Source: Tubulanus polymorphus
Lineage: Eukaryota; Animalia; Nemertea
Direction of reading: 5' to 3'
Assembly: GCF_964204645.1 (NCBI RefSeq)
Contig: NC_134033.1
Location: 6,782,231 to 6,846,230, forward strand
Length of the DNA stretch: 64,000 nucleotides
Part shown: one piece after another, positions 17,916-45,133 of the stretch
How positions within the stretch are numbered: position 1 is the first letter of the stretch
Layout: each line of letters starts with the position of its first letter
The notes under the pieces: generated by a model
Told to the model about the DNA's origin: nothing
The model's input: the letters and a program-made list of their open reading frames with translations, nothing else
Databases searched by the model: none
Program-made: the position numbers and the translations under genes

Positions 17916-18102
17916 ACTCAACTAGCTTGTTAATCTAGTATATTTTTAGTTACATTCTAGTTAAATTTTAGTTATTGGTAGTTGAAATAAAAACAACAAT
18001 ATTTCAACTAGCTTGTTAATCTAGTATATTTTTAGTTACATTCTAGTTAAATTCTAGTTTAATTCTAGTTGCAACAACACAACTAATTTGTTTCTTACAT
18101 AA

Positions 18103-22016: not shown

Positions 22017-22580
22017 AGTAATAGGGGTAATGGGCTTTCAAGCCAAAGGTCGAACGGTCGAGCTCATTAAAAAACAAAACATTAAAAGTAATTTAAAACT
22101 ATAATATATTTTCATAACCGTGTGCTTTTTATATTATAACTAAATATTTATTCTAAGATATTAATAATTTAAATTTTAAAAGCATATTGTATTAAATCAA
22201 TTGGTCGCTCCACTTCGCTACCGCTCCGCTCCGCGACCAATTGATTTATTTACAATACACAAATTCATATAATCAAATATATTTTAATAATAATAATTAT
22301 TCTATTATTCAACTGAAATACACACGGTTATGAAAATATATTATAGTTTTAAATTACTTTTAATGTTTTGTTTTTTAATTAACTTGACCATTCAACCTTT
22401 AACCTAAAAGCCCATTACCCCTATTACTCTTAAAATAATCATATACATGAATAACATTTAAATTGACAGATCATTCAATATAAAAGTATATATTTACAAC
22501 ATTATTTCAATATTCATATTTGTGTGAGTTAGATTTTTAAACATTAAAAGTGTTAGTAAAGTGTGATTGAAATAATGCAT
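22017..22580 (+). repeat. Left TIR including ~412-bp palindrome (22017-22428)
   Basis: AGTAATAGGGGTAATGGGC... pairs with ...GCCCATTACCCCTATTACT; apex TCAATTGGTCGC-24 nt-GCGACCAATTGA. Confidence 0.9.
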
Positions 22581-23309
22581 AGCTGTTTATACTAGAACAT
22601 GATTCTATTTGAGCCTATATACATTCCATGTAAAGAGCTATGGAATAAATCTATAAATTCACAGCTGTTACAGCTGTTTCTATGACGCCGAGACATATGA
22701 GACATATGCAAACGTGTAGAGAAAATTCTAGAAAGGTGTGCCGGAACCAGATGACGTGGCAGGAAATGAACAGGCGCTGTAACATTACGCTCAGGATATT
22801 ATATCTCTCGAAACGAAATTAGGAGTTTATAGTTTACAATTCTAAATCTAAATGTAAGTACTGTTTTTTGTAGTTATTAGGGCTATTAAATATGAAACCT
22901 TTAGATATATTTGAGTGTATTTAGTATATCTTTTAGATGGCTAGAGTTGCCGCTAATATCTTTTAGATTAATAAAACGCCATACGCATCAAGAAGTGATA
23001 GAGAAACTCAAGATACTCTTTCTGACTGAGGAATCAACAGCAATGGGGATATCGAACCAATAGAAATTAGCACAAGAAACACAAGAATCACCAAAAGATC
23101 GACGAAGAAACTATATAAGAATTTCAAAAACATTAAAACTCCAATGATTAAGTTTAACATTTGTTGATGTAGTTAAATATTTACCAGCAATTGAAAAAAT
23201 GTTTGTAATTATAAATTGTATTTATAGAAATCAAATGATGTATTGGAAGAAACGACTGAACAACTTGTATAATGTATTGTGTAAATCTGATTGGTGAATT
23301 TTTATGTTC

Positions 23310-23640
23310 AGTCGTTTCTATTATGATTAACGCATGCGCATTTAGCAAAACCGGCCATAAATGGCCGCATGTGACGCATGTAACGCATGTGACGAGGACA
23401 TGAATGCGTTTGAATTTTCTATGTTCAGTTGTTTCTATTTTACAGAATTTGCATAATGAATATATAATTATGATTAACGCATGCGCATTAAGCAAAACCG
23501 GCCATAAATGGCCGCATGTGACGCATGTAACGCATGTGTTGTTTCTATTTTACAGAATTTATAGAATGAATATATAATTATGATTAACACATGTGCATTA
23601 AGCAAAAGCGCGCCTGTATGTCCGCATGTGACGCGGGTAT
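23310..23640. repeat. Three imperfect direct repeats with internal dyads
   Basis: ATGATTAACGCATGCGCATTAAGCAAAACCGGCCATAAATGGCCGCATGTGACGC at ~23323, 23470, 23580. Confidence 0.8.
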
Positions 23641-23774
23641 TGTGACTGGTATGATTATCAAGGAATCGAAACAACTTATCAAAGCAGCGAGGAATGAAAA
23701 AGGATGACGTTGGTCGAAGAAATGGAAGAGGATTCTAAAATATTAACCAATTTAGTAAAAAATGCATATAATAA

Positions 23775-24453
23775 ATGGAACCAGAACTAACACAAATTAT
23801 CAATATTACAAATAACACTGGTGGTGTTATAAATATATATTACAAGAAGTGTTCTAAATGTGAATTAGATAAATTAGCTTTAACAGAATTTAGTAAGCGT
23901 AAGATTAGCAAAGATGGTTTTCAATATTGCTGTAAAACTTGTTTTAAACTATATACCAAACAATACCGAGAAGATAATATAGAACATTATAATTATTATA
24001 TGGCAGAATATATGAGAGAAAGATATCAAACAGATCTTAATTTTAGATTAAAACAATGTTTAAGATCTAGATTAACACAATTATTCAACAAAGAAACACA
24101 TTCAGAAACACTATCTAATTTATTGGGTTGTTCAGATGAATTTTTCATATCATGGATAATATATCAATTCGATGATAAAATGAATATAGATAACTATGGT
24201 GAATACTTTCATATTGATCATGTGTTGCCGATTTCTAAATTAAACATGAATGATGAATACAATAAAAAACTTATTTGGGGTTGGAAAAATTTAAGGCCTT
24301 TAGGAAAGAAAGAAAATCAAATCAAATCTAATATACTAGAATACAGTTATATTTAGAACAGTTAACAAAGGCAAAGAAATTTATTGATCAATGGAACAAT
24401 GATCCAAATAATGAACAATACGTTGAGGAATTTGATATCAAGGATCCGAAATG
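23775..24453 (+). CDS. HNH-type endonuclease with N-terminal CxxC-CxxC (NCLDV-like), probably frameshifted near C-terminus
   Basis: CSKC...KDG...CKTC, LRSRL, LLGCS, NYGEYFHIDHVLP, NLRPL...ENQIKSN. Confidence 0.75.
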
Positions 24454-24689
24454 ACTTAGCTGGACAGTTATAATTACTGCTCCTAATAGATAGACAATAG
24501 TAGTGAGATATCAAATAGAATTTAAAATAAAATGTAATAAAAAAACAATAACTTCAACTAGCCATTATTTCTATTTTAATTTTTGATATTTTCTTTTACA
24601 ATTTTTTTCAAAAGAGAATACTTTATATTTTAAATAGATTCAAATAGAAATTCTTTAAATTCAAATAGCTAGTATCAGTAGTCAATCTA

Positions 24690-25309
24690 AATAATCAGTC
24701 AATCAGTAAGAAATCTAAAAAGAATGGTATTGATATTGAAAAAACATTAGATGATTTGGGTATAAGTGATAATAAAGATACAGTTGTAACTAATTGTGCT
24801 CAAGTTAATTGTAATATAGATTATGAAACTATTTATATTGTAAGCATCATCTAGAACTATTGATTGCCGCTGGAAAAACTAAGGAGTTTTTAAATAGAAT
24901 CATTACTTTTCAAGAACTAGACTCTATGAAACCAGATGAAGTAATAAAATATTTTAAGATTTATGAAGAGGCAAGATTAGCTAGAATAAATGATTCTATT
25001 TCAGATGGTATTGTCAAATGTTATTCTAAGTTATGTAACCAGTTAATACCAATTGATGATGAAAATAAATTATATAGTGATTTGAAAAATGACTATTTAG
25101 TTATGACTGAATTACAAAAATGGGTTGGTTATGATTCATTTCAATTAGGATCGGTTATGACATTAATTTCTACTGGTGTCATAACATTTTCGAACATCAA
25201 GCATATGGAATATAAATCAGGCAAGAACGAAACAGATGACGCTGTACTACAACCAAACAGCGAAACAGAAAATGAATCAGAACAAAAATTAACTAAAATA
25301 AATGAGTGA
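24690..25309 (+). pseudogene. Polinton hypothetical protein A (5' disrupted)
   Basis: Homologous to 18103-18633 (IEKTLDDLGI, KHHLELLIA). Confidence 0.75.
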
Positions 25310-25670
25310 TAGCGTTAAGAAAAAGCCTTGATCCGAGAAACAAATTAAATGGGCAAGAGAATTAGGTAAAAGATCTGCAGAATTAAAAAAAGCAAAGAAA
25401 AAGAAATTAACTGATATAAATGAATCACAGACTTTATCTGATATTGATTCAAATAATAATCCATCTGATTCTTCTAATGCTGGAAGTAATTATAAATTAT
25501 ATATTACAATTGGATTAGTAACGGTTATTATATTATCCGGCGTAATATATATATCAAAATTCAAATCTGATGATAAAGATGATTCCAATGACAATGAACC
25601 TATCATACCAGAAAATAAGTCAAATCCTAAAACCATTGAAAATAACCCAAGATTATTATTAATGGATTAA
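25302..25670 (+). pseudogene. Polinton hypothetical protein B with TM segment
   Basis: KKP*SEKQIKWARELG homologous to 18630-19030; hydrophobic LYITIGLVTVIILSGVIYI. Confidence 0.6.
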
Positions 25671-25676
25671 AAGAAG

Positions 25677-26781
25677 ATGAAAAAAGAACAATATTTAAGA
25701 GATTTATATTATAACCCAGAAAGTGAAGTATCATATTCTAACGTTTCAGAATTATGGAATAAAATTAAATCTGATAATGAAAATGGTGCCGTACGGCACC
25801 CACACGGTGATATAAAATATAGTGAATTAAAATCATGGTTACAAAATCAACCAACATATCAAATCCACAAGAAAATGGATAAAACTTATTTAACAAGAAA
25901 AGTAATGTTTTCATATATCGATCAACAATGGCAAGCAGATTTAATTGATATGAAGAACTTAGAGGAATACAACAAAGGATATTTCTGGATATTAAATGTT
26001 ATAGACATATTCAGTAGATACGCATGGTCAATTCCAATCAAAAATAAAACTGGTATAGAAGTAACAAATGCTTTTAAATCTATATTTAAAGAAGCTATTC
26101 CAGATAAGATACAATTTGATGAAGGTAAAGAATTTTATAACAAACATTTAAAAAAAACTATTATCCGATAACGATGTAGACTATTTTTCAACACACTCAG
26201 ATAAAAAAGCATCTATTATAGAAAGATTTAATAAAACATTGAAAACTAGAATGTGGAAATATTTTACTGCTAATGAAACATATAAATATATCGATGTATT
26301 AGATGATTTAGTGAAAGGTTATAATAATTCTAAACATAGTTCTATAAATATGAAACCTATACAAGCTAGAAAAGAAGATAATTCGGAAATAGTTTGGAAT
26401 AATTTATATGGAGCATTTGTTACACATGATTTCGGAGAACCTAAATTTAAAATTGGACAACACGTAAGAATATCTAAATATAGAAAAACCTTTTATAAAG
26501 GTTATACCCCAAATTTGTACAGAAGAAATATTCAAGATTAAAAAGATAATATTAACTAAACCATTCGTTTATAAATTAGAAATCTAAAAAATGGAGAAAT
26601 ATTAGGTTATTTCTATGAACAAGAATTATCACTTGTACCAAATCCAGAGGAAATAGAATACAAAATAGAAAAGTATTGAAAACAAATACTCTTAAAGGAA
26701 AAAAGTATTCTTTGGTGAAATATAAAGGATACGATGATAAATTTAATGAATGGATTTTATCTAGTAAAATTAAAAGAATAA
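25677..26781 (+). pseudogene. Polinton RVE integrase with chromodomain (frameshifted)
   Basis: LYYNP, WQADL, IDIFSRYAW, QFDEGKEF, IERFNKTLK (D-D-E), KHSSINMKP, KYKGYDDKFNEWI. Confidence 0.92.
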
Positions 26782-27370
26782 ATGAATAAAGATTTATTTA
26801 TATTTGAACCGCATAATATGTTAGTTACTGGTGTAACCAATTGTGGTAAAACACATTTCATATTAGATTTGTTAGAAACTATTTATAAGAATCATTTTGA
26901 TAATGTAATATTATTCTGCCCTACTTATGAAATGAATAAAACATATAATAGAGATATAGTTAAGATAAAAAAGTTTATTATATTAAATCCTAAAACAGTA
27001 AAAGAAAATTTAGATAATTGTATAAAAATAGCACTTGATACTTATAAAGGATCAAATACATTATTCATTGTAGATGATTGCGCAAATTTACATGATTCAA
27101 AAGTGAGAGAAAGTGAGTTATGTTATCTAGCTTTCTCTGGAAGACATTTCGGGATAACAACAAGGGTTTTAAATCAAAAATATAATTCAATTGTTAAAGA
27201 CTTTAGGGAGAATATAAGATTTCTAGTTTTATTCTACAATAAAGATAGAAAATCTATGCAACAATCATTGGAAGAAAATCAAATTATACCTACTGAATTA
27301 CATGATGAATATATGTTCAAAATTATTACTGAGATTACAATTTCCCTATGAATATAAATTTATAAAATAA
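26782..27370 (+). CDS. A32/FtsK-like packaging ATPase (C-terminal lesion)
   Basis: Walker A GVTNCGKT, Walker B IVDD, SGRH, LNQ...FRENI. Confidence 0.9.
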
Positions 27371-27877
27371 CTATCTATATATCTATCTAATACGTATTAA
27401 ATACGTATTAAATACGTATTAAATACATTAATACTTAAAACCCCCTTTTTTAAATGAATATTATTCATACAATTTTCAACCAATTTATTTTTATTTTTTC
27501 AACTAATATATGAATAAGTTTGAAAATAAATATTCCTGAAGATGACTATTAGGATATAGTCGAAATAAACTACTATCTCGAAGTTTCATTTTCGGACTTT
27601 TTATTATCATTGTGGGATTCTCTCCTCATCGCGTCAACACGGATATTGTGTTCTACCTATCGTGATTTGAAAATAATAAAGGTTATTTATTACTACTGAG
27701 GTTTCAATATAAATTTAAAAAAGAAATATAATTTAAGGTATTTTCAAATAATATGTATTAGATATGTATTAGATACCCTATTAGATGCCTTAAATACTTA
27801 AAACCCCTTTTTTATTTACTATTATTTTATACAATTTACAACTAATATAATTATTTGAGTTAAATATAATTAATATC

Positions 27878-28738
27878 TTAATCACTTTCATCATCACTCT
27901 CCAATTCACTATCAGACCCTAACAATTTATTCAAATTCTCTACCGAATTTTCTTCTTCAAATTCTCTATTTTTTTTATACTTATTTTTCACCTTTTTTAC
28001 CGCATCATCAATAGTTGTTTCATTGTTATGCTTATTCATCCAATCAAATTTATCATTATTTTCTACTTTATGTTTCATAGAATCTTTATAAGTGTTTGCT
28101 ACTAATATTTCATTTACAGTGTTTGATCCTAATATTTCATTAGCATCGGTTAGATCTAATTCATCTTTATTAGGTGTTGCTAATAATAAATCTTCATATA
28201 TTTTTTCACCATTTAATTTTTGATTTGGAACAAACTTTGAAACATATCTAAATGGGTGTTCTATAAATTCTTTTAAACCAACACGTTCTATAACATTATT
28301 TATATGTACCCTTGTATTCATATGTTTATTCCAATTTGATGTAGCGTTTGAAAATTCACTTTTACAATATCCACAATAATTTCTATTTTCACTAACATTT
28401 AATATTATTTCATTATTAGATGTAGAGGGTATTACATTATTAGATGTAGAAGGTATTACATTATTAGATGTAGTAGGTATTACATTATTAGATGTAGAAG
28501 CTATTACATTATAAGATGTAGAAGGTATTACATTATTAGATGTAGAAGGTATTAAATTACTTAAATTATCAACAACTTCACTTTTATTATTATCGATTTC
28601 TATTAGTTTAGTTTTATAAATTTTGAAAATAGGATCAAATATCAAAGCTATATTACAAGGTATTACATAATATAAACCATCATTATTTTCATGTGTATCG
28701 ATGTATGGAATATGTTTATATACTTTACCTCCTTCCAT
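27878..28738 (-). CDS. Hypothetical protein with IPSTSNNV repeats and C2H2-type zinc finger
   Basis: Intact 286-aa ORF; six 8-aa repeats; CGYC...HMNTRVH. Confidence 0.7.
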   Translation of the reverse strand: MEGGKVYKHIPYIDTHENNDGLYYVIPCNIALIFDPIFKIYKTKLIEIDNNKSEVVDNLSNLIPSTSNNVIPSTSYNVIASTSNNVIPTTSNNVIPSTSNNVIPSTSNNEIILNVSENRNYCGYCKSEFSNATSNWNKHMNTRVHINNVIERVGLKEFIEHPFRYVSKFVPNQKLNGEKIYEDLLLATPNKDELDLTDANEILGSNTVNEILVANTYKDSMKHKVENNDKFDWMNKHNNETTIDDAVKKVKNKYKKNREFEEENSVENLNKLLGSDSELESDDESD

Positions 28739-28770
28739 TTATTATACATATTTTTATTAAAGTTAAAATT

Positions 28771-30018
28771 TTAATACATAACACTATTCAATTGAGAATT
28801 TACAATATTTAATTGCGCGTCAGATATAATATAAATGTGCATTTTGAAATTTTTGATTCCTTTATTCTTTGTCATGAATAATTGTATTCCATCTTTAGTG
28901 TTTTGTAATTTTTTTCCAGAACCATGTAATGAATTATCCTCTGTTGTTCTAAAATCTAACCATAATGCATATTTATTACCGGTATAATAATCAATTTGAT
29001 TAATGTTACAATTTTCAGATGATTTTACGTTTTCATTCATAAAATGTTTTCTAATTTCTGGCCATTGATCAATCATTCTCATTCCTTGGCAAAATATTTT
29101 ATTTGCTATTCCTTCGATAGTTATTTCTTCTTTAGTTATTTCAGGATTATAATAATTATCAACATTTATTGCGCCATTAGTATATGTTGCAATGGTAAAA
29201 ATATTAATATACCTTTAATAGATCTTCTTGGGAAGTTAATATTCTCATTAATTATTTCATCATTTGCATTAATAGTTACGGTTTTAAATGTATCAATATA
29301 ATCATATAATAATGAAAATCCTTGATTGTATTGAGTTTGAATTATACTTGAAATATTTTCATCAGTTACTGTGTCTTATTCTAAACATATATTCGATAAT
29401 TTATAACTCATATCTTTATTAACGCTAGATATTTCAATTTCATTAAGAGGAGCAAATGTTATTTCGAATATAACGTATTCTTGAATTGCGTATTTATATA
29501 AAGGTGCATTGTTATTTATCAATTCAAAGTCTAATGGAATTTTATATTTGCTTCCATATATACTTTTTATCAATTTATCTACAGCATTAGTTAATATTGC
29601 GCTATTAGCTTCTGATCTTAATTCATTTTGGTTTTCTGATTGGATGCCTTGAAATATCATATTATTTCTATTTTTCTTTAGTTAACCATAAATCTTTATA
29701 ATGCATAAATCAATTATAATCATCTAATGAGAAAACTGTTTCTGGACCAATCTTTATAGTTAATTTTTTAATCAAATATCTTCCAACATTATCAACAACA
29801 TAATTATCATTATTACCGATTACTTTTATATCGGCAGATAAATAAATACTATTTGGAACGTAAAAAGTATTTTGTGTTAATCGAGGAATTCTAACATATA
29901 AAGTTTCATCGGGATTGATATTAGAAGGGTTATGAGTAATTATATGATGTGATCTTTCTGCTTTAATAGCATTAGATATTCTATGATTCTTAGAAGGATT
30001 GATATAACTCCCACTCAT
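28771..30018 (-). pseudogene. Major capsid protein (double jelly-roll, Polinton type)
   Basis: ITHNPSNINPDETLYVRIP, NVGRYLIKK, KIPLDFEL, LSNICLE, ALWLDFRT...LHGSG, DAQLNI; ~415 codons; assignment from recalled Polinton motifs. Confidence 0.75.
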
Positions 30019-31448
30019 TTATTTGACAAAAAAATTAATTATTTATTTTTTAACATATTCACTAACCCAAAAATAATAGCACTTACAACTGTAATTAAAA
30101 ATAAAATAATATGTTCAGCAGCAAAGTTAAGAATATTCCCAGCAGATTTCAATATTAAACCAACAATTGACGCAATAACTCCGGGTAAAGCTGCAGCAGA
30201 TTTTTTAGATAGTTCCCATAAATATTTTGCTAATTTCTTTAAACCATCCTTAACTTTATCTTGTATAGAATTATTATCATTCGGGGTTTATCCGGTTTAT
30301 TGGGAGTAGGAGTAGATTTCAGTGAATTTGATATAGCTAAACCTATTGTCGTAAATACCATAGTTACTGCTGTTAGAATTGAAAGAATTGTGATTCCTTC
30401 AAACTTAAATAATAATTTTATTCTATCTTTCAATAATATTTCAGAATTTGGTTTAATTATTAAATCTTTAACAACAACTTTTAATCTATTAATACAATAA
30501 TTATATGATTTTTTTAATAATTTAATTTCTTCTTTCTGAAATTCTATGTTATATTCTAAATTATCAATTTCTTTTCTAAATATGCATTTCTTTTTTTAAA
30601 TTCAATTTCTTCATTAACTTTATTATCTCTATCTAATTTTAATTGTTCTGATTCTTTTCTTGATTTAAATAATTCATATTCTAATTTTAAAATCTCTTAT
30701 ACTTTTATCATGCGCAAATTTATCAGCTTTATTTTGTATACTAATAATTTCTCTAATTGCTTTATCAGAAAATATATTTAAATCTTCTAATTCTTGTTTT
30801 GTTGCATCAAGTAATCCATTTGGTAAAAGTTTTTCAGTTTGAACTCCTCTTGAATTAGGTTTACTAGTTTTGGAAGTTATATTCTGTTCAGAAGTTGTTT
30901 CTGTTTCTAAATTATTATCGATTGTTTCAAATAATTCATTAATTCTTTGTTTAAATACTCTTTCATTTTTAATAATTTCTTCTTGTGTTACATCTTCTAT
31001 TTCATTACTATTTCTTATTCTTTTAATTCTAGATAGGTCTAACTTAAGCAAAGTTGATTCTGCTAATATAATAATCATCTTTCAAATGATAATAATATTC
31101 ACCATCTAAAGATTTTACTTCTTGTACTAAAAGTCTGGCGCCTCTGGCATTTATATTATATCCAGATTTTTCAAATATAGGTTTGGAATTATAAATATAT
31201 TCATTATATTCTAAATTTTGTTTTACTAAATCTGGATTTTCATTTTCAGGATTTAATCTCGATCTAGTTCTTCTATCAAATTCATCTGTTGATTGGCCTT
31301 TAGAACCACTATCTGCTAAATTAGAATTATATGCTGATTCATTACCATCATCAATATTAGTTTCTGCATCATTATAATCATCATCAATATATCCTTCATT
31401 ATTATTTCCCATACCTTCCATTTCATAATCTTCTCCACCTTCTGCCAT
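30019..31448 (-). pseudogene. Acidic/coiled-coil protein with C-terminal hydrophobic helices
   Basis: Fragments 31044-31448, 30674-31078, 30239-30433, ending AAALPGVIASIVGLIL...AEHIILFLITVV. Confidence 0.65.
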
Positions 31449-31463
31449 TTACATAATAAAAAA

Positions 31464-31701
31464 TCAAAATTTAAAATATAATATTCCTCCGATTACAATT
31501 CCTATACAGGTTAAAGCTAATTTAGTATTTTCATGGGATTTATTATCATCATTTAGTTTAATTATTTCATGTTGAATATTATCAGTTTTTATATCTTCTG
31601 ATGTATTGTAATCTTTTATTTTAGAATCATTATTTAATTTAATATTATTAGTTTTAGTTTCTGTTGATTGAATGTGTTTTTTATTTTTTTTCACCTTCCA
31701 T
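31464..31701 (-). CDS. Small protein with C-terminal TM segment
   Basis: LALTCIGIVIGGILYFKF; start region ambiguous. Confidence 0.5.
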
Positions 31702-32763
31702 TAGTTTTGGAGCAGTAATTATCTTTTATTTATATCATTTAATCCAAATGAATTATTTATTGTTGCAGTTTTAATTAGATTATTATAACCAATTATGTTT
31801 CCCATCTTTAATACTAAATCATTAGAAATAATTAATAGATTAGGGCCTATACAATAATTTAATCTAATATGTGATTTATCTAAATAATTTTGATATCTTA
31901 CAATGTTTTCCGGAATCGATCTATTTTTATCATTATGAATTGAATCTTCAAATAATACTTTAAACTGTTTCTGCGCATCGAATGAAGTGTTATCATTTCC
32001 AGTTATTGGTTATCTTGTTTCAACTGGCGCACCTAAAATACATATCAAATAAGTTCTAATAGATTGATTTATTCTTTGTATTCCAGCTTAAGTAAAACTT
32101 TCACTATTTTCTAAAATGAAATTAACCCAACCATTATTATTATCAATTTTATAATTATGATAAGCTGAAATTCTATGCATATAATCAATTCTTTTTAATT
32201 CAAACTCTTCACCAACACCTTGCAATTTACCATGCGCTCTAAAATCGGAATTAATATTTATATTAAATTCATTACATATTTTATAAAACTTAGATAGATT
32301 AATATTATTATCCAATTCTTTAAAATATTTAGACCCGGGTAAAGGACATTCTAATACATTTAATATTATTCTGATTTGAAAATATGTGTGAAATCTAAAT
32401 ACTGTGAGAATTAATTTTAAATCAGAATACTTCAAATTTTTATCTAAGTTATTGAAATGATCATTCCAACTTATTCCACATCCTGTTGTTGCACAATAAA
32501 CAGCAAAATCTAATTGGTTCTGCCATTATTTCATATTAGATTTTACTTTATATATATGATATTCATCTCGAGTAAAAGTAACTTCATATGTATTAAATAT
32601 ATTTTCCATTTTAGAAATAAAAAACTGTGATTCAGTAACATAAATTTCTAAATTAGTTAATGAATTTAAAACTACATTTTTATATGTAATATTTTTCTTA
32701 AAATCTATTGCAGGAATATTATATTTAATTGATTTATTATATTGGAAAGCTTTTGAACCCCAT
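31700..32763 (-). pseudogene. Conserved Polinton hypothetical protein
   Basis: WQNQLDFAVYCATTGCGISW, VFRFHTYFQIR...CPLPG, AGIQRINQSIRTY, DAQKQF; several stops. Confidence 0.7.
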
Positions 32764-32779
32764 TTATATAATTAAAAAA

Positions 32780-33214
32780 TCAATAATTAACTAATTCTTT
32801 TAATAATTTATCTTGTTCTTCAACTGTTATATGACCATTTAAACTTATTATATAATCTAGTGTATTCTTTAATTTATTAATTTCTTTTATATTAGTTTTA
32901 ATTTTTTCTTTATTACTTTTTATATTTAATTTTGAACTTATACCAGTTAAAACACTTGAACTTAATCCTAATACACCAATTGATATAGCTAAAGGTGTTA
33001 ATGGACTGAATATTGCTAGAAATGTTATTACAGAACTAATTGTAACCGAACCACTTATAATAAAATAATATATAATTTTAGATTTTAAATATTTTTTCTT
33101 TTTAACTTTTAAGTCACTTTCAAATTCTAATATTTGTTTTTCTAAATATGTTTTTAATTTAGTTTTATTTATATCATGAGGAATAATATCAATATTATCA
33201 ACTTTATCTTCCAT
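32780..33214 (-). CDS. Two-TM hypothetical protein
   Basis: Intact 144-aa ORF with two adjacent hydrophobic helices flanked by Lys-rich segments. Confidence 0.7.
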   Translation of the reverse strand: MEDKVDNIDIIPHDINKTKLKTYLEKQILEFESDLKVKKKKYLKSKIIYYFIISGSVTISSVITFLAIFSPLTPLAISIGVLGLSSSVLTGISSKLNIKSNKEKIKTNIKEINKLKNTLDYIISLNGHITVEEQDKLLKELVNY

Positions 33215-33234
33215 TTATTTAGCAAAAAAAATTA

Positions 33235-33657
33235 CTAATTAGTAAACTTATGAGCAACAAATATAACAATAACAATTCCACCTAAAATCCATATTATTTC
33301 ATATTTCTGTTGTTCTTTACTTGGGGTATAATAATCTGATAAATTAGGTTTGTATAGATGTAATTTTTCTTTATTTGTTACTGCGTTATATAAACTCATT
33401 GCATCATCAACTGATTGAAAATCTCTATGTGAAATCTTCTGATCATATAGTTCTTTATTGATGTAATCCATATAGTTTTGTCGTTTTTCTCTATATTCTT
33501 CCGTTGCTTTATTATATTTCTCTAATGCTAAGTTATGTCTTTTTTGTTCTGTTAATGATCCATTTTTATCAATATGTTTAAATAAATATCCACCACCAGT
33601 AAATGCTAAAGCGTTAACAATTGCCGATCCTATAATAGTTATAACTGCAGAAGCCAT
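33235..33657 (-). CDS. Conserved Polinton protein with hydrophobic N-terminus and C-terminal TM
   Basis: IVNALAFTGGGYLF...EQKRHNLALE...LSDYYTPS motif set. Confidence 0.75.
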   Translation of the reverse strand: MASAVITIIGSAIVNALAFTGGGYLFKHIDKNGSLTEQKRHNLALEKYNKATEEYREKRQNYMDYINKELYDQKISHRDFQSVDDAMSLYNAVTNKEKLHLYKPNLSDYYTPSKEQQKYEIIWILGGIVIVIFVAHKFTN

Positions 33658-33681
33658 TTATTTAGTAAAATGATTATGCAT

Positions 33682-33897
33682 TTATATGGGAGGAATATAT
33701 TTTTGTTTTTCCAAATAATCAATAGTTAAATTAGATAAAGTAACCGCTAATGTTAATTTCAAAATATCATTTATATCAAATCTATCAACATTAACACTTC
33801 CCATTTTAAATACTTTTTTTAATACCATTGAATCACCAACAGTTCCAAGTAATGCGCCATTATATAATCCAGTTATTATCCACTTATTATCACTCAT
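33682..33897 (-). CDS. Small hydrophobic Polinton protein
   Basis: 71 aa, GLYNGALL...DILKL...DYLEKQKYIP. Confidence 0.65.
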   Translation of the reverse strand: MSDNKWIITGLYNGALLGTVGDSMVLKKVFKMGSVNVDRFDINDILKLTLAVTLSNLTIDYLEKQKYIPPI

Positions 33898-34254
33898 TTA
33901 TTTATCAAAAAAATTACTATCATCAAAATATTTAGTTATCTTATTTATGATTAATTCAACATTTATTTCATTACTAGTTTCATTTGTATATATTTCAATT
34001 ATTATTTTTTTAATATCATCGATGATAAAATCTTCATCTAATTCATAAAATCTTAAAGATTCTCTAATTAAATTAGTAATCTTTTCTACATTTAAAGTTT
34101 CTTTATCTATTGTTGTTTCATACTCAAATGTTTTTTCATTAGAAAATGTAATATTTTTGATATGTGTAATTACATCATTAACGTTAAATTTCATTTCTTT
34201 CTCATGTTTAAAATCAAACCCAAAACATATACTCGGCCCAACAGTTATATTCAT
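33898..34254 (-). CDS. Hypothetical protein
   Basis: 118-aa ORF with TAAATG start; its stop abuts the next start. Confidence 0.6.
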   Translation of the reverse strand: MNITVGPSICFGFDFKHEKEMKFNVNDVITHIKNITFSNEKTFEYETTIDKETLNVEKITNLIRESLRFYELDEDFIIDDIKKIIIEIYTNETSNEINVELIINKITKYFDDSNFFDK

Positions 34255-34270
34255 TTATATAGTGAAAAAA

Positions 34271-35025
34271 TTACTCTTTACATCTTATAACTAATTCATA
34301 TATCACAGGAAAGTTATTCAAATCAATTAAATAACCATTATGATTTCTTATTTCTAATTTAAAATTATTGAAATGTGGAATACAAGGTTTGAAATCACAT
34401 TCAGTTAAATTATAATTTATTTGAGTTCCAAATTGTTTAACATTTTTAGCGGTAAAATATTTAGTATACTAGAACTACAAATTGTTTCTTTAGTTGCTTC
34501 AAAAGTTTTTGTAGGCTCGATTAAATTGCAATAAATATAAAAGTGTGTAAAAGGTATTATATTTGAGCTGCCTTCTGCGTTTCCAGTAACTGTGGGCGGT
34601 TTAATTCCTAACATTTTAGCCAGTGGTTTGTTTACCATAAATTTATGTTGTTCATTAGATATCTTTATTCTTATTTTATTAGTACTATCAATTTTATTAA
34701 ATTTAATTTCAAATACAGAAGTGCCCCCGATTTTCAACCGAGCTCTTCTATTAATTTCCTGCGCTAATGATTCTAAATTATATAATCCTGGTTTCAAAAA
34801 TATATGAAACCATTTATCTTTATTTCTCATATAAATCATAAACCCTCTATGTTCAAAAGTTTTATCTGATATATTATGAAAAGAATTACATAAACTTATA
34901 TTTACTTATATTAAATCTACACAATTCTTAAATTCTCTATCTAATTGTACTAGTAAATTATGAGATTTATAATTTGTAAGTTTTCTAGAATCAACAAATA
35001 TTCTGTATTCTTTTAATTCCACCAT
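34271..35025 (-). pseudogene. Minor capsid (penton-like) protein, frameshifted
   Basis: PGLYNLESL, LAKMLGI, YIYCNLI, C-terminal FKLEIRNHNGYLIDLNNFPVIYEL. Confidence 0.7.
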
Positions 35026-35042
35026 TTATTTTACATATTTTC

Positions 35043-35396
35043 TTATTCGAAATCTATTTCATGGTGCCCTTTTTCATTCTTACCTTTGTATACGAAATAG
35101 AAATCTCCAGAACATAATTCTTCTAAATCTTCACTTGATAATCTATGAAATCTATCCGGTAAATATGTTCTGAATTTATATGTATTTCCTTTTAATCCTT
35201 CATATTCTAAGTGTATAACAAATTTATCTCCATAGTTATTAGTAATTGTATCAATATTTGTAATTAGATATTTCGTATGGATTGTTAATTCTGTTAACTT
35301 TTTGAATTTATAATCTACAGATTTTACATTTGTGATATCTTTAATTCTATCTAGAAATAATTTGTTGTTCTCACTGTGTGTTTGTTTACTCTCCAT
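35043..35396 (-). CDS. Hypothetical protein
   Basis: 117 aa; FKKLTEL...NYGDK...YLPDRF...GKNEKGH; homolog at 19150-19493. Confidence 0.7.
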   Translation of the reverse strand: MESKQTHSENNKLFLDRIKDITNVKSVDYKFKKLTELTIHTKYLITNIDTITNNYGDKFVIHLEYEGLKGNTYKFRTYLPDRFHRLSSEDLEELCSGDFYFVYKGKNEKGHHEIDFE

Positions 35397-35425
35397 TTAT
35401 AATACATATTTTTATTAAAATTTGA

Positions 35426-38400
35426 TTAACACGTTAGAATTCTTTTCATTATCTCGTTCTCTTTTGTTTCTTCTCTTTTAAATTTTAAGTATTCATCTAA
35501 ATTGCAACCATAAGCAACTGTATGAATTCCATCATCCAGAATATATCTTTTATCATCAAATGGGTTTAGACTTATCTTTTCAATTTCTTCAATAAACATT
35601 TCATGATCTTCAGATCTTAAACATCTCATCTTATGTTTTCTAACTTCTTCATTGAATAGACAATTGATGTAATCTTTGAAATGAATATTCTTTTCTACTA
35701 CATTTTTGGATATTCCTTTTAACTTTTTAGATTCATGTTCTTTAGTTTTATATCGATCTAATACCAATGAATTCAATCATTTCTTCACCGCCTAATTCAT
35801 TTTTGAATTTACCGGGAACTTTTTATTATCATTGCTAAACAATTCATGATCTTTAGGATAGTTACTGAAATCAAAATGATGTTTTAATGTTTTTAAATCA
35901 TCAGTTATGTTATCAGTTTTTATCTTCAATATGTAACTGTCAGTATCAAAATATAATATTTTTATATGTTTTTCTCCAAAAAGTGGTTGTAATACATTAT
36001 AATAGAATTCATACATTAGTAATTTTGATAATTCTAAAACTGAAGCGCCAACATAGATTGGTTTATTAAATTTCATTGATTTTCTTCTCATCTTAACTGC
36101 AGCTAAATTTTCATCAAATATTCTGTTACCAATGAACTTAGGATATGATTGTAAATGTCTAATTCTTTTACCATTACTAACTAACTCAATATCATTTCTA
36201 TTACTAATATTTTCACAAGTCTTACCATAGAATGCATTATTCATTAACTTGAAGAAATCTTTCTCGAAATCAGTTTTAGCTTCAGTTCTCTGTTTGGTGT
36301 TAAAATCTATATATTTTTCTAACCACTTAGATTGACTGAATGAAATATATCTATGTACTTTTTTTAGAACCATTCCTTGTTTTAGATAAAACTTTAACAT
36401 TCTATAATGTACTACATAATTATATTTATCTTCTTGAGTTACCATTAACTTTTCTGTATGAATAAGATTTTCGGGTTTAATTCTTTTTTGATAATTTGAT
36501 AATTCTTCATGAGTAACGGTTTTATGTTCTGGACAGTATGCTAGATTTCTAGATTTAAATTTAATATGTTCAGGATATTCTAAATCTACAACAAAGAAGT
36601 AACCAGTATCTGAATCATCTGCAATATCTAGAATTCTTTTCTTCCAATCAAATTTATCATTATTTTCATTCTGTAAAACTTCACTTATTTCAAATACTCC
36701 ATAAGGTTGTGGTTCCATCATTGCCCAACCATACAAATTATTTGCATCTATATATAATAACTTATATCCAGGGTTATCATTTACATTGAAATATCTATCA
36801 CCTAATACACCTGAAACTCCTCCTCTTATAGATTTTTCAAATGATAATAATTGATCTATATTTGTTAACAAATCCATTTTTATATCTGTAAATTTTAATC
36901 CACAATCCCATGTTAAACCTGGTGATGAATAACAATGACATAGATCAATATTGAAATATTTTAGGTTTACATCTCTAAACCTTTCGAATATATCGGTTAA
37001 TAATAATACATCTGATTTTAAATATAAATCTACTAATTGCCCATGATTTTCTATTTTGAAATGATTCCAAATATTCAATGTTCTATTATATACTTCATCT
37101 TTAACATATTCATTTTTTAATTCATCATAAAATTGTTCTTTTAATAATTCAGTTATATTGAAATCATTATGTGATTTATAAAATGAATATGGAATTGCTC
37201 CTTTATATCTCATTAATTGAAAATCATCATTATTTGGATAGTGTTGTTTTAATATTTTTAATTCATCATCAACTAATGATTTTGATAAGTTATCTAATGA
37301 ACTATTTAAAAATCTATATGAATCTATAAATCTTAGGCAACCAAATTGGAATGATATATAATTCTCAGATGTTTTAGCTAACATTCTAAATTTATAAGTT
37401 GGTATTTTATCTTTTGATCTATTTGAATTTAATCTCTCTATTTCATTATTGATTTCTTCTATTTTATGGCATAACTGTTTGATGAATTAATGTGCATCAT
37501 ATCCTGATAGATTATGAAATATAACTGGTACAAAGTTAATTTTCTTAGCTTGTAAGTTACAATTCGCATGTGCAGCGCCTCTAAACTTTCCATTCAAATG
37601 ATCATGGTCTCTTACTTTTTTATCTTTATAATTAAATATCTTTTCACAATAATAACATTTATCTGCAAACGCAAATTCTTCTTTATCTTCTTCTGTCATT
37701 ATAATTTATATATTTGTATTCAATAATTTACTAAATCTTATTTCATATTCAATTAATAAGTCACAAAAATGATTGATAACATTTTCATTTCTATAATCAT
37801 AATATTCACTTTCAATTAGTTCTGGATAATCAGATTTAATATATAACCCGAAAGCTGCAGCTGATCGATGAATCTTTTTAATAGTATTTGTTATTGGTGC
37901 TTCTTCTGAAAAATCATTTTCATTAAAATTTAATTTCTTTCTTTTATAATATATTTCTTTTCTATCTTGATCGGTTAATTCTTTATTTAATGATTCAAAA
38001 TCTCCATATATAAGAAATGGAACTTTATTTTTGTAATCATATTTTTTGAATTCTAATATTTTATCTTTTTCATTTGGTAAAACTAATTTACAATAATCAT
38101 GATTTTCACATAATTGTTTATGATTTAATAATGTACTTTCATTACTGAATCTATGTAAAAATTTTCTACAAAGATATATTTTATGGTGATCATTTTCTGA
38201 TTTAAAAAATAAATCGATTTGTTTAATCCACATATAATGATTTTCATAATATAGTATATCTATAACATCGTTTGAATCATAATTTTTTGATAGATATAAA
38301 GGTTCTAATGTATAATGTTTTATGTTGTTACCTTTTGTATTTGGTAATTTGATTAAATCAAATACATTTATTCTTAAATTATTATCTCTTTCTATTTTTG

Positions 38401-39454
38401 GGATGTTTTTAATTATAACAGGATACTTATCTATCTTATAATTATTTTCAAATTGTTTATAATGAGTTAATCTAAAACTATGTTGTTTATAATCTTCAAC
38501 TGGGTGTAAACAACTTATTATAGCCCATAGAAAACATTTATCATCTTCATTTTGTACATTTATTACAGCATTAGTTTTAAATGGTAGTTTAATATAACTC
38601 GATGCTTTAATATCTGGTTCTTTATAATATGATACATTATTTTCATCGATTGGTTTTGATTTAGTTAACTAATTATATTTTGTGTTATAAACATGTAAAG
38701 TCATAAATATTATTTCATCAAATATTAAACCAGATCCTTCAAAATATATCTCTTCTATTTTAGTTTTTACTTCATTATAACATTTATCTAATTTATCATT
38801 TATATGTTGTTTTGAAATAATATGTTGTGAATGAGAATTTATATTATATATTGGTTTATCTTCAGATTTTATGAATTTAACTTTAGAAGATATACTTATT
38901 TTAGGATATTCAACATCAGTTATTATTTTTATTATTTCTTTCATATTTTCTAAATGTTTTTTATTTTCTTCTAATGTTTTTCATTTATGAAATTTGAACT
39001 CGATAGCTGCTGGGCCAATATCACTTTTAAATGCTTCGGTTATCTCTATATCTTTTTTATTATCTAATGAATTAATATATTTTCTTACATCTTCCATGTA
39101 TGGTCTTTTATTGTTTAGATTATTTTTTATGCTTTTAATTGTCTTCTGTTTCTTATCATTATCTTTATCAAAATAATCTTCACCTAAAATATCATTATTC
39201 TTATTTCTAATATGACTTTTAGATTTTAAATGTTCATTATAATATCTTTTATCACTGAATGATTGATTACATGTATCACATTTGTATGTTTCTTTTTCAT
39301 TCTTTAATTCATCTAATTTAGATTCTAATATATCATCTTTATATTCTAGTTTCAATTTATTCTCTAAATGTGTTTTAGTTTTATTGTGTCTTGCTTTTTG
39401 GGATTTATCTATATTGATATTACATGTTGGGCAGTAGTACTTATTTGCTTCCAT
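35426..39454 (-). pseudogene. Protein-primed DNA polymerase B (intein-free), frameshifted
   Basis: N-terminal zinc fingers, YGDFES (ExoI), EndoVII-like CYYC...DHDH...AHANCN, FHNLSGYD, DSYRFL, YIDANNLYGWAM, KLMNNAFYGK, YFDTDS, FDDKR. Confidence 0.95.
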
Positions 39455-39508
39455 TTTAATACAAAATTTTTTATTAAAATTGATTTTAGAAGTTCAATGA
39501 TTTATATC

Positions 39509-39893
39509 ATGCATTATTTCAATCACACTTTACTAACACTTTTAATGTTTAAAAATCTAACTCACACAAATATGAATATTGAAATAATGTTGTAAATATA
39601 TACTTTTATATTGAATAATCTGTCAATTTAAATGTTATTTATGTATATGATTATTTTAAGAGTAATAGGGGTAATGGGCTTTCAGGTTAAAGGTTGAATG
39701 GTCGAGTTCATTAAAAAACAAAACATTAAAAAGTAATTTAAAACTATAATATATTTTCATAACCATGTGTATTTCAGTTGAATAATAGAATGATTATTAT
39801 TATTAAAATATATTTGATTATATGAATTTGTGTATTGTAAATAAATCAATTGGTCGCGGAGCGGAGCGGTAGCGAAGTGGAGCGACCAATTGA
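39509..39893 (-). repeat. Right TIR, truncated at hairpin apex
   Basis: Reverse complement of 22197-22580 with few mismatches. Confidence 0.9.
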
Positions 39894-40641
39894 AGACTCG
39901 GTGGACGATGAGTCCGTATTGTGGCTGGATGGACCCTCACGTTCCCCCTCTGGTGTTGACTTACGATCCCTTTTTGGCTCCCTCCCACCCTCCCTATCTC
40001 TATCTATCTTGCCTCCATGTACATTCGTCCGCGAAAAGTCATTTCCTCCCAATACTCTATACTGGACGAGTATACATAGGGGGAGTTGATGTCACTGGGG
40101 AAACGGATAATTTCACGGTGGTTGCCTGAAAGGCGACTGCAACAAACTAACCCCATCCCGCTACATAAAGGTGGCAGAATGAACAGGCCGGCAACACTGA
40201 GAAATGAAATGAACATCAATGAGTGGAATATAAATTACGTACCACATACTGGAAAAACATGAACTGGAAAATACAGGAATTTCCTGAATATGCACCGTGC
40301 ATAGTTTTGTCTTGTATTTCTTAGTTCTTGTATATTTTTGAAGGACATGTCAATCCTCAGCCACTATTTGTACGGCTCCACCACGACAGGAATAAACTCC
40401 TGAATAACTTGGAAACTTTAGTACATGTATATTCTAGCATGAAATCGAAATCAAAAAGCACATCACCGTGCGTATGAGTGTTAACGAATCTGTGTCTCCC
40501 GAACTATAGGCTTTCGCACAACAACGAATCACTTGCTCGCAGCTTACGGATAGATAGACCTCCGTCTGTACACCAGGCCTCAATGTTCCGTACCGCTTTG
40601 TATATATGTTTCAGTTGTTTCATGTTATGTTACTTTTTACA

Positions 40642-40813
40642 GAAAATAATTTCACGATACCAGATATTGCAGAAATGTTATCTGTTAGTAAAATGACGGT
40701 AGCAAATCGTTTAAGAGAATATCACATGAAAGTTCGAGATTACTATTGCGTCATCACAGATGAACATCTAGATAGTCGGGTTGCGTACTATATGCAGCTA
40801 TTCCCTAATGCTG
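40642..40813 (+). pseudogene. Exon encoding HTH N-terminus of a probable integrase-like transposase
   Basis: AG|ENNFTIPDIAEMLSVSKMTVANRLREYH...ITDEHLD...FPNAG|GTAAGT. Confidence 0.55.
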
Positions 40814-41674
40814 GTAAGTCTTTTTCCTGGATTCTTTAAGCCCAACACCACCAATAAAAATGCACAAAGCATCATAATAGTGGTATTGCGTGCGCTCTCT
40901 ATATTTTTAATTACTCTCTACATCTTATAACTAATTCATAAATTAAAGGAAGGTTATTCAAATCAATTAAATAACCATTATGATTTCTTATTTTCTTAAT
41001 TTTTAAATTATTGAAATGTGGAATACAAGGTTTAAAATCCGATTCAGCTAAATTATAATTTATTTGAGTTCCAAATTGTTAAACATTTTTTAATGGTAAA
41101 ATAGTTAATAAACCAGAATTACAAATTGTATCGTTAGTTGCTTCAAATGTTTTTGTAGGATCAATTAAATTGCAATAAATATAAAAGTGTGTAAAAGGCA
41201 TTATATTTGAATTAGCGTCTACGTTTCCTGTAACAGTTTGTGGTTTAATTCCTAACAGTTAAGCCAAAGGTTTTCTTACCATAAATGCATGTTTGCTTTC
41301 ATCATCTAACTTTATTTTAATTTTATCAGAACTATTTACAGATTCTTTTGACTTTCAAAAACTGTAGTTTATGATCGACATCTCGCATTTTAAATGCGTA
41401 CAAATGTGCCAAAGTGACACAGTGGGGCACCACCACATGCCATAAGGTAAGCAGTTTTAAGTAATTTTTCATGGGCATCCATGCCTGCAGCCGGGGGGGG
41501 AGTTGTACGTGCAATTGCGTTCTGTAATGCTTAATGTATATGATAAAATGGCCGATTTTGCGTACAGAGGGGGAGGGGGGTTGGAAAATTCAAATTTTAT
41601 GCGTACGTAATAAATGAATGATCTCTAACCGATAGTTCAATTGTAGAATCAAAGAAACTTACAAGTACAAAAGA

Positions 41675-42422
41675 ATGAAATATGAGAAAACGTGTCCAGA
41701 TAATAAAGAAACACTTGAAAAGTTGGAAAAACAATATAATGAATTAGCAAGAAAAACATATTATTGTAAATATTGTAAATTGATTATCTATATAAGTAAT
41801 TCAAATCTACATAATAGAACAATAAAAAATAAAGAAAACGTAAGTAAATACCAAGAACTTAATGAAGATCTATTGCCAAGATATGATAGAAAAAAATGCC
41901 CACAATGTATTTATGAGTACTTAAGACAAGAAAATTCTGTGATATTTTCTAATGAATTTGGATGGCAAAGAAATTTATGGGGTAATAAAAAAACTAGAGA
42001 TATTCTTATAGAACCAAAATTAAAATATCTAGATGAAATGTTTAAGATATTTTCTATGGAATATCATACACCAGAAAATAAGCAATGGATTGAAAAAAAA
42101 ACCTAAAGTAACAAAAGAAGATATAAGAAATATAAAAGAAACGTTCACAAACATATTAAAATATCATGTGGATAATAACATAACAGATTCAATTAATTAT
42201 GAATTCTGTTTAAATAAGATTGTACATTTTTTAAACATCGATATTATAATTCCGTTTGATGAATTAACGAACAGAAAGAAACAAAGAGAGCTAGATGAAG
42301 TGTGGAATAACATAGAACTTTATTTAAATGAGAAAAATGAAATGGAAGAACCTAAACAATTAAATAAAAATGAAGAAACCAGTAGTGATGTAGAGTATGA
42401 TGATCTTGATTTTATGTTTTAA
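41675..42422 (+). pseudogene. VLTF3-like (poxvirus A2 family) late transcription factor, frameshift in A-run ~42095
   Basis: CKYC and CPQC motifs; C-terminal SINYEFCLNKI...KKQRELDEVWNNIELYL resembles the VLTF3 C-terminal pattern (recalled, not searched). Confidence 0.5.
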
Positions 42423-45043
42423 TAACCATAAGGTAATGTTTTTATTCCATCATCCAAAATATATCTCTTATCGTCGAATGGATTTAAGCTAGTTTTTTCA
42501 ACTTCATTAATGTACATCTCGTGATCTTCTAAACAATTCATTTTATGTTTCATAACTATTGAGTTATATAAACACTTAATATAATCTTGAAATTCTATAT
42601 GTTTGTCAACCACATGCTTTGTGATTCCTTTTAACTTTTTAGCTTCATGATCTTTTGTTCTATAACTATTCATTTTACTTCTTATCCCAACAAATACAAT
42701 CATTTCATCACCCCCTAATTCATCTTTAAATTTACCAGGAATTTTTTTATTATCATTGCTAAATAGTTCATGATCTTCTGGATAATTGCTATAGTCAAAA
42801 TGATGTTTTAATGTCATTTGTCTTGATTTTTAGTATGTAACTGTCGGTATTGACCGCTATTAATGGAAATCCACAGTTAAATGTTCCATCATCAGTTGAT
42901 AAATCATAAACATAATCTGATGGCTGATATATTTCAAATAAATCTTTAACTTCGTCAGTTATTTCTATTTCTACATGGCTTAAGTTAAAGCAATTTGGTT
43001 TAGATTTAATCAATCCAATATTCATATTAAAACCTAATGAATTGCATAATAGATTCAATCCTGATATACCAACTTTTCCTTTTTGTGCAAATGTTATTAC
43101 TGGAGAACTCGTAAATTTTTTAGCACCATCTGCTGCATAAAATCCAATGAAGAACCATCTTCTTAAATTATATTTTGCATTTAATACATAATCTGGAACT
43201 ATCTTTTCTTTTGTTGAAGTATTACTTTTCACTAATGCGTGAATATAGAATTCATCATTATATTTTGTGGCAAAATCTTTAGGATTATTTACAAATATTC
43301 TATAAACCGCTGATGATTTCATATGATCCACGATTCTAAATATTTTGTGTGAATAAACATCTTCACAATATTTTTTAATTCTTTCTAATAATTTCAATTC
43401 TTGATTACATAAATACCAACGATATTGAGTGCTATTAACATATTTATACACACTTGCTGAACCATCACCCATGAAAAATCCTGTGATAAAATATTCTTTT
43501 TCTTCTAATGTTTCAGGTTCTATATCATAAATATTATCAATTATTTCATCAAATTACATATGATTCATTCTTTGGAAAAATCTTTTATGTAATAATTCAT
43601 CTCCAATTTTTACATCAGTTGGTTTTATTTCATCACCATTTCGTTTAATTAAACTATGATCTTCTGTAACATCTACAAACCCGAATATAGTTCTAACTCT
43701 ATAAATTTTCTTATTCGTTTTATGCCTAATAATATCTTTTAATTTTTTCCATCCATTTCTTGTCCAAACATCCATTAATCCATTTATTTGTATCAATTCT
43801 TTTTTACCATACGAAATATAAAGTTCATTTTGTTTTGGAATTATTTCTGAAATTCTTCTAATTAATATTTGGTTATTGTATTTTAATAATATTGGGGTAT
43901 CAGCTGTTACAGAATCAAAATATAATATTTCAATATGCTTTTCCCCAAAAAGTGGTTGTAAAACATTATAATAAAAATCATACATTAATAATTTTGATAT
44001 TTCTAAAACAGTTGAACGTATAAATATAGGTTTATGAAATTTCATTGACGTTCTTTTTAATTTTACCGCGGTTAAATAATCTTCAAATCTCTTATTTCCC
44101 TAACTGTCTTGGACTTGATTGTAAATGTCTTAATCTTTCACAATTATTTACTAATTCAATATCATTTCTATTTCTAATATTTTCACATGTTTTTCCATAA
44201 AAACTATTATTCATTAATTTAAGGAAATCTTTTTCAAAATCTGTTTTAGATATGGTTCTCTGTTGAGTATTAAAATCTATATATTTTTCTAACCACTTCG
44301 ATAGATTAAATTCAATATATCTATGTACTTTCTTTAATTTCATTCCTTGTTTTAGATAAAATTGTAACATCCTATAATGAACAATATAATTGTATTTATT
44401 ATTTTGAGTAAGTATTAATTTTTCTGTAAAAACTTGATCTTTCGGTTTTATTTTTTTCTGATATTCACTTAAATATTTATCATCTACGGCTAAATGTTCT
44501 GGGCAATATGGTTTCTTGTGTTAAACTTGATGTTATCAGGATATTCTAAATCAACTACAAAGAAATAACCAATTGGTGCTTCATCTTTTAAACCCATAAT
44601 TGCACTTTTCCAATCAGTTTTATCATCATTATCAACTTTTTTTAATATAACAAATCTATAACATTTTCATCATCATAATATTCTGTTAAATATAAAGCTT
44701 CTAATGTATAATCTTTAATATTTTCACCTTTTGTCTCTGGTTATTGCATTAATTCGAATATATTTATTTTTAAATTATTAACTTTTTCTATTTTAGGAAT
44801 CATTTTTATAGTTACAGGATATTGATCAATTTTATATAATGTTTCATATTTCCGGTAACATATTATTCTAAAACTATGCGTAATATCTTCTGTTGGGTGT
44901 AAACAACTAATAATTGACCATGGAAAACATTTATCATCTTCATTTTGAACATTTATTACTGCTTTTGTTGTAAATGGTAATTTAATATAAGATGATGCTT
45001 TAATATCCTTTTCTGTTGTAAAGTTTGAATCATTTTTAAACAT
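42419..45043 (-). pseudogene. pPolB copy with intein; internal deletion removes exonuclease and motif A
   Basis: SSYIKLP...VINVQNEDDKCF joined near 44640 to GYFFVVDLEYP; KLMNNSFYGK; YFD-[intein]-TDS; GKFKDE; FDDKR. Confidence 0.9.
42849..43913 (-). mobile_element. Intein with LAGLIDADG homing endonuclease in pPolB motif C
   Basis: Block A SVTADTPILL, block B VDVTEDHSLI, ITGFFMGDGS and FIGFYAADGA, block F YVYDLSTDDGTF, block G LIAVN|T; 1065 nt in frame, with one stop at 43554-56. Confidence 0.92.
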
Positions 45044-45133
45044 TTTATTACTTTTTGATGTTTTATTTCTTTTTGTATTATAAACATATAGTATATATTT
45101 TGTATTATAAGATGTATCTGTTTTTCAATTCAG

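Follow-up and report, generated by a model that had tools for sequence, protein, structure and literature searches.

Does an intein move between the Polinton polymerase genes of an animal genome, and are two neighbouring polymerase copies, one occupied and one empty, its donor and its target? The question is raised by a stretch of 64,000 nucleotides (nt) from the nemertean Tubulanus polymorphus (NCBI RefSeq assembly GCF_964204645.1, contig NC_134033.1, positions 6,782,231 to 6,846,230 of the forward strand), referred to here as the window, in which a decayed Polinton/Maverick element with an intein-free protein-primed PolB (pPolB) lies beside a fragment of a second Polinton whose pPolB contains an insert. 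Judged from its sequence, this insert interrupts motif C of the polymerase and is an intein of the LAGLIDADG type. Our reading of its history, to which we assign a probability of roughly 0.6 as a whole, is that pPolB inteins go back to one entry from a giant-virus-type PolB, that homing between close Polintons has kept them up, and that the two window copies represent two separately amplified subfamilies.

The initial annotation of this DNA quoted corresponding peptides from the empty and the intein-bearing polymerase and held that they fix the insertion point. Both peptides are present on the minus strand, the residues flanking the site are identical at 30 of 31 positions, and the insertion point is indeed fixed exactly (coordinates of all features are given in the table). 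As intact empty relatives carry almost the same junction peptide as the window, this match mostly reflects family conservation of the catalytic motif. The insert is in frame, its removal leaves a conserved motif, and the empty site is found in the window and in 111 further proteins. The insertion falls between the Asp and the TDS of motif C, and the junctions and trees place it with other inteins at that site. The insert passes TIGR01445 above the cut-off and PF14528 at the cut-off, with PF14890 (E 2e-5) falling below it. Ser1, Asn355 and the extein Thr+1 are the canonical class 1 termini, and blocks B (TxxH), C, E and F (Asp) are present, the TxxH and the block F Asp recurring in six other pPolB inteins. 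A penultimate His is usual in class 1 inteins, not universal; the window intein has Val at this position, seven of nine other pPolB inteins have His and the remaining two have Ser and Lys. Two LAGLIDADG helices carry acidic catalytic residues and are accompanied by the matching fold. The structure model (pLDDT 81.6, from a seven-row alignment) matches endonuclease-bearing inteins with a best E of 3e-14, and I-DmoI and PI-PfuI are among the fold matches. Among viral structures, the best matches are polymerases (phycodnavirus, pandoravirus, marseillevirus and megavirus). A PDB sequence search with the intein returned two weak matches only. The window intein is interrupted by one in-frame stop (43554-43556), which is private decay, as 225 of 236 reads lack it. 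Intact, full-length occupied pPolBs do exist (P0002, P0003, P0005 and P0006).

The closest inteins occupy the same site in other pPolBs, with identities of 59.6% (P0002), 68.9% (P0296, over its half) and 41-47% (P0003-P0006). Next come RNA-primed PolBs, including that of Mimivirus (P0078, 36.7% by BLAST), with the same xD/S...N/TDS site. Intein matches were present in 269 of the 279 proteins examined, 230 of them PolB, 13 pPolB and 26 other. In trees from which near-identical members of the P0003 and Mimivirus clusters were left out, and in which P0316 was put in the pPolB group by its intein alone, the pPolB inteins are monophyletic (10 of 60 rows, support 100, starred) and, when rooted on six topoisomerase-type inteins, nest inside the PolB inteins under two starred branches (42 rows). 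Because the clade nests in this way, the sequences suggest a single gain of the pPolB intein from a giant-virus-type PolB, the weak points being the root and the unlabelled rows. P0005 is a very distant pPolB: its exteins share 20-29% identity with those of the others, its intein 41-49%, and this intein likely reflects a transfer between distant Polinton groups. Among P0008, P0088, P0406, P0419 and P0313, related inteins also occur in topoisomerase II-type proteins, and several PolBs have a second related intein at another site. Clusters P0426 (55 members) and P0439 (14) contain many open reading frames (ORFs) that are almost intein only, with an 11-residue, Met-led N-extein and a C-extein of four to seven residues; these ORFs may represent an endonuclease gene that stands on its own within a family of repeats.

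Occupancy is patchy. The site is occupied in three of the 120 best full-length relatives, empty in 111 and unassigned in six, and it is occupied in none of the 87 loci that cover it (103 examined, 16 not covering). None of the best 80 of 220 metagenome loci had an intein, and the viral contigs scanned gave no intein-bearing Polinton, only one spurious locus, 3 and 22 polymerase loci without an intein and a further 22 loci with 25-41% intein matches. On the extein tree there are eight state changes among 51 rows, at least seven of them forced, and occupied copies cluster no more strongly than shuffled labels do (221/500). A single clade of intein-bearing polymerases is rejected by the approximately unbiased (AU) test (p-AU 0.039, 22 rows, with P0005, P0017, P0127 and P0296 left out). 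One clade of occupied copies with no conversion was the pattern that the initial annotation had named as incompatible with homing; one clade is rejected, and a conversion-like block is present in another Polinton family, described below. The endonuclease domain is nearly as conserved as the splicing parts, with mean identities of 51.4% versus 54.2% and 56.1% (45 pairs), and both catalytic Asp residues (blocks C and E) are kept in all ten pPolB inteins.

The best sign of homing comes from the P0003 cluster, of whose 136 members 40 were read, 15 listed and 13 informative, P0126 (129 residues) and P0124 (which ends before the site) being left out. Between the seven occupied and six empty proteins, identity is 98.5% for residues 290-1031 and 96.3% beyond residue 1431, whereas near the site it falls to 58% in the ten residues before the intein and 78% in the 44 after it. 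All ten fixed differences between occupied and empty proteins lie within seven residues before and 44 residues after the intein. Eight polymorphisms farther out, on both sides, are common to the two classes, four of them as single cases per class. Such a block is what co-conversion onto several backgrounds would leave. The block around the site in this cluster is a candidate for the co-conversion tracts proposed earlier as the mark to look for; the window pair has a weak tract of 40-60 nt upstream and no downstream tract.

The two window copies had been described as alleles about 7-8 kb apart. The distances hold, the N-side junctions being 7,969 nt and the C-side junctions 6,904 nt apart, but the copies are not alleles: they belong to different subfamilies, with DNA identities of 77.5% (559/721) before the site, 78.3% (342/437) beyond it and, in a distant 5′ segment, 78.0%. 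In extein trees the main copy groups with the intact, empty P0148-P0150 and the intein copy is sister to the empty L030 (85-86%) and groups with the intein-bearing fragment P0296; forcing the window copies into a clade is rejected (p-AU 3.8e-59). The two thus appear to be broken members of two subfamilies, which have likely multiplied separately in this genome. Immediately around the site their DNA differs at 6 of 63 nt upstream (five synonymous, one not) and at 7 of 30 nt downstream (six codons, all synonymous), and of 124 informative sites 89 are tree-like, 17 unite the window pair and 18 are crossed. Recent co-conversion between the window copies is rejected by the identity on both sides and these flank differences.

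The number of copies behind each type was estimated from 12% of one whole-genome shotgun run (X5) of another individual under the same species label, using the best table rows and one low-copy bin. In this run 51 of 6,735 reads matched at 99% or more on a 2.4-kb stretch. When reads were placed against both copies, the main pPolB had a depth of 449-710, either extein of the intein copy 242 and the intein itself 138-213, compared with 3.15 in the low-copy bin. These depths suggest that the intein subfamily has about 75 copies, most of them occupied, and the main subfamily about 140-225, most of them empty. Under a more permissive threshold, depth is 224-260 over the N-terminal half of the intein and 264-301 over the exteins and drops from 604 just before the intein to 280 inside it, and 33 reads skip the intein among the joints listed. 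Main-type reads stack about 335-fold on the last 90 nt before the intein without entering it. From these reads we estimate that the intein has come close to fixation in its own subfamily and that few or no copies of the sister subfamily carry it. Occupied and empty pPolB copies are both abundant in the genome, and occupancy mostly sorts by subfamily. As the main subfamily is mostly empty despite its higher abundance, the neighbour is not established as a working target. The suggestion that it supplies the natural homing target is not supported, given a sister subfamily that differs by this much on both sides of the site and is largely intein-free, although its copies outnumber the occupied ones two to three times. 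At best, the empty site next door would be a poor target or one used in the past.

The sequence of events that we favour would run as follows. The intein, which lies at the Mimivirus PolB site and has all splicing and endonuclease motifs except the penultimate His, would splice from the polymerase precursor and so restore the DTDS motif. At the vacant motif-C site of a close relative, co-resident or co-replicating, its endonuclease would cut the DNA, and repair templated by the occupied copy would bring in the intein with a short flank, either in the chromosome or in a replicating virus. The trees suggest one gain followed by long co-divergence, repeated loss and re-invasion within sub-lineages, and at least one jump to a distant pPolB. 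Target recognition may drift with each sub-lineage, and such drift would account for the co-divergence, the patchiness and the confinement to one subfamily here. As intein and extein divergences track each other within the main pPolB group, transfer would be mostly between close relatives, which argues against free homing.

Several points weigh against this account. Within the main pPolB group the identities of inteins and exteins go hand in hand (60.8 versus 60.5/56.2%, 65.7 versus 68.5/69.2% and 74.1 versus 78.5/74.8%), a co-divergence that a single ancient gain followed by many precise losses would explain as well. Conservation of the endonuclease could serve folding or some other role, and the P0003-cluster block, observed at the protein level in 13 of 136 proteins, could come from ordinary recombination. 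The giant-virus-type label is drawn from PF00136, two named matches and structure matches, and the copy numbers from one run of another individual and one low-copy bin. For the two window copies, positions -61 to +3 include no tree-like, three window-pair and two crossed sites; depending on the outgroup, the permutation p is 0.0004-0.02 upstream only, 0.003-0.07 at ±60 nt and 0.04-0.43 at ±100 nt, for widths picked after the data were seen and with two of the three window-pair sites in one codon. The last 40-60 nt before the site hint at some exchange between the subfamilies, old and one-sided.

This last signal leads to an alternative that we consider unlikely, namely that the main-type empty site does serve as a target and that the intein homes, or once homed, between the two subfamilies within the host lineage. 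Both are abundant in one genome, the intein copy is nearer to the main copy (55/60) than to its sister L030 (51/60) in the last 60 nt before the site, and the window copies have two amino-acid states in common that most of eight close intact proteins lack. One of these two residues is, however, also found in L027/P0267, the main-type reads stop at the intein, no shared tract follows the site, and the remaining flank differences between the window copies are nearly all synonymous. Somewhat less probable again is a single gain in an early Polinton followed by inheritance and loss only, the intein being now a passenger of transposition that no longer homes. The parallel identities and the similar deep branching of the intein and extein trees fit such a history, as near fixation in one subfamily fits passive amplification, but with most relatives empty it requires dozens of precise losses, P0005 still requires a transfer, the endonuclease is undecayed, and in one family polymorphisms on both sides of the site are common to occupied and empty alleles. 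By analogy with a weapon model put forward for giant viruses (PMC5871332), occupied Polintons in a co-infected cell might instead cut the polymerase gene of competitors that lack the intein, be these other Polintons or a helper giant virus, and homing would then be a side effect. The conserved nuclease, the site shared with giant-virus PolB and the nearly free-standing intein ORFs in repeat clusters would suit this proposal, which we nevertheless regard as improbable, the empty subfamily being the more abundant here and giant-virus flanks being strongly unlike Polinton flanks.

The surroundings of the two polymerases are those of Polintons. In the main element PF03175, PF00665 and PF04665 lie within 15-20 kb, and long terminal inverted repeats (22197-22580 and 39509-39893, 385 nt, 97.9% identity) are present. 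No 6-bp target-site duplication of this element was found at its flanks, its right end being apparently truncated. Its pPolB is broken by in-frame stops at about 38983, 38671, 37708 and 37489 and by frame breaks near 35825-35755. No Pfam match was obtained for the probable major capsid ORFs; Capsid_NCLDV clusters are among the Atlas look-alikes of 28774-29214 (score 0.96, of low recognition value), and no maturation protease was detected among the subset of ORFs scanned. The terminal repeat (22017-22428 and 39661-39893) contains a long internal palindrome with a central hairpin, and 270 reads switch strand at 39774/39893 among the joints listed; 41 reads in the same listing join 35391 to 39450, corresponding to main-family copies without the whole polymerase gene, probably non-autonomous derivatives. 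A 193-residue ORF at 23775-24356 has Cys/His motifs, resembles an HNH-type nuclease by eye and has no Pfam match; DNA similar to it adjoins pPolB in L026, L027 and L029.

The nearest intact relative of the second fragment is L030, where the same two genes are arranged tail to tail. This fragment is interrupted by a short palindromic repeat present in many copies (41340-41623, depth about 1000, with strand-switch joints). The third remnant has 66-78% DNA identity to the main element and a different gene order, and it may or may not be part of one element with the right-hand fragment; no duplication or junction was found to support nesting of the main element in one older intein-bearing element made up of the left and right fragments. 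Adjacency of the two Polintons likely reflects a pile-up of insertions. Directly beside the second fragment, 45130-45275 and 46631-47644 are exons of an intron-split, monocarboxylate-transporter-like gene of the major facilitator superfamily (MFS), for which a PDB sequence search with the host MFS ORF gave no match. A 118-bp satellite (131 copies, 90% matches) fills 48494-63998, and remnants of a long-terminal-repeat-type retroelement (RVT_1, RT_RNaseH) are present at 1205-2844. These surroundings, together with an implied genome size of about 0.6 Gb, fit an animal host.

Table. Polinton-related features of the window, with positions counted from its first nucleotide.
Feature	Position	Strand	Evidence and remarks
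Third Polinton remnant (integrase, ATPase, two further genes)	16672..19135	+	
Main Polinton/Maverick element, decayed, ~17.9 kb	22017..39893		left terminus probably 22017; right end apparently truncated at 39893
Retroviral-type integrase, two frames	25671..26541	+	PF00665 E 8.5e-8
A32-type packaging ATPase	26782..27351	+	PF04665 E 1e-11
Probable major capsid protein, in pieces	28771..30018	-	Atlas look-alikes of 28774-29214
Possible minor capsid (penton-like) protein	34417..34905	-	weak lead; 86% DNA match to 40909-41335
Intein-free pPolB of the main element	35426..39445	-	PF03175 E 6e-15; tblastn with intact relatives
Empty intein site, polymerase motif C	35915..36007	-	junction 35945/35944; in ORF 35792-37486
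Second Polinton fragment, sister subfamily, 4.2 kb (capsid-gene remnant, VLTF3-like gene, pPolB)	40909..45124		
VLTF3-like gene, two frames	41636..42422	+	PF04947 E 6e-7; 39-47% to second ORF of L030
Intein-bearing pPolB, broken	42419..45124	-	several frame breaks; ~515-codon deletion at 44636/44637
Intein with LAGLIDADG endonuclease, 355 codons	42849..43913	-	split site in ORFs 43554-44099 and 42795-43553

The window thus holds a known intein allele as a new variant in a new kind of host element, and the pair of copies is a useful marker of the insertion point. A multi-copy intein carried by an endogenous virus in an animal genome widens the range of eukaryotic inteins. We tentatively raise a bolder possibility, that animal Polintons run a full homing cycle in which an intein derived from giant viruses moves between integrated or co-replicating copies in germ lines, at tens of copies per genome and once as a nearly free-standing nuclease gene. 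If so, no earlier intein population would be known from animal chromosomes, and these sequences would record at the molecular level that the ancestors of animal Polintons replicated in cells shared with giant viruses. Homing requires that donor and target DNA meet in the same cell, and the position of these inteins within the giant-virus-type PolB inteins therefore points to past co-infection by Polintons and giant viruses. How homing endonucleases stay functional over long times has been posed as an open question (PMC1654191), and families in which occupied and empty copies are 98-99% identical provide a natural system for it in which copies can be counted. The same families also bear on whether integrated Polintons recombine with one another.

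Searches of the open full-text literature gave no account of a Polinton polymerase with a HINT/LAGLIDADG intein; such an annotation may exist in supplements, subscription journals or repeat databases. Nuclease insertions of the HNH and VSR types have been reported in Polinton pPolB2 (Jeong et al. 2023, PMC10748475), in the available text of which the word 'intein' does not occur, and one sentence in Krupovic et al. 2024 (PMC11071308) suggests that pPolB nuclease insertions (HNH, VSR) are intein invasions. The window insert resembles them in placing a nuclease domain inside a Polinton polymerase and differs in its HINT splicing domain, its LAGLIDADG motifs, its catalytic-motif site and the matching empty alleles. 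Eukaryotic inteins are listed from fungi, algal plastids, protists and viruses, with no animal nuclear inteins in the accessible text of PMC5784728 and PMC10710043; viral sources and allelic homing are proposed there for the nuclear inteins of fungi and Anaeramoeba. Like these, the window intein resides in a eukaryotic nuclear genome, whereas its carrier is a multi-copy endogenous virus or transposon in an animal. The archaeal inteins PhoVMA (7qst), PI-PkoII (2cw7), TliVMA (7qsu) and PI-PfuI (1dq3) have the same HINT and LAGLIDADG fold (E 3e-14 to 5e-12), with 12-19% identity and other hosts. The closest known system is the 351-residue intein in Mimivirus PolB, R322 (Ogata et al. 2005, PMC549080), with which the window intein shares the motif-C site, a Ser start, an Asn end followed by Thr, the block B TxxH, the LAGLIDADG domain, and a penultimate residue other than His (Lys in Mimivirus). 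Unlike the PolB inteins of Mimivirus and other Nucleocytoviricota, it is hosted not by the RNA-primed PolB of a giant virus but by the protein-primed PolB of an 18-kb integrating Polinton, and the Polinton inteins form a clade of their own, with tens of chromosomal copies.

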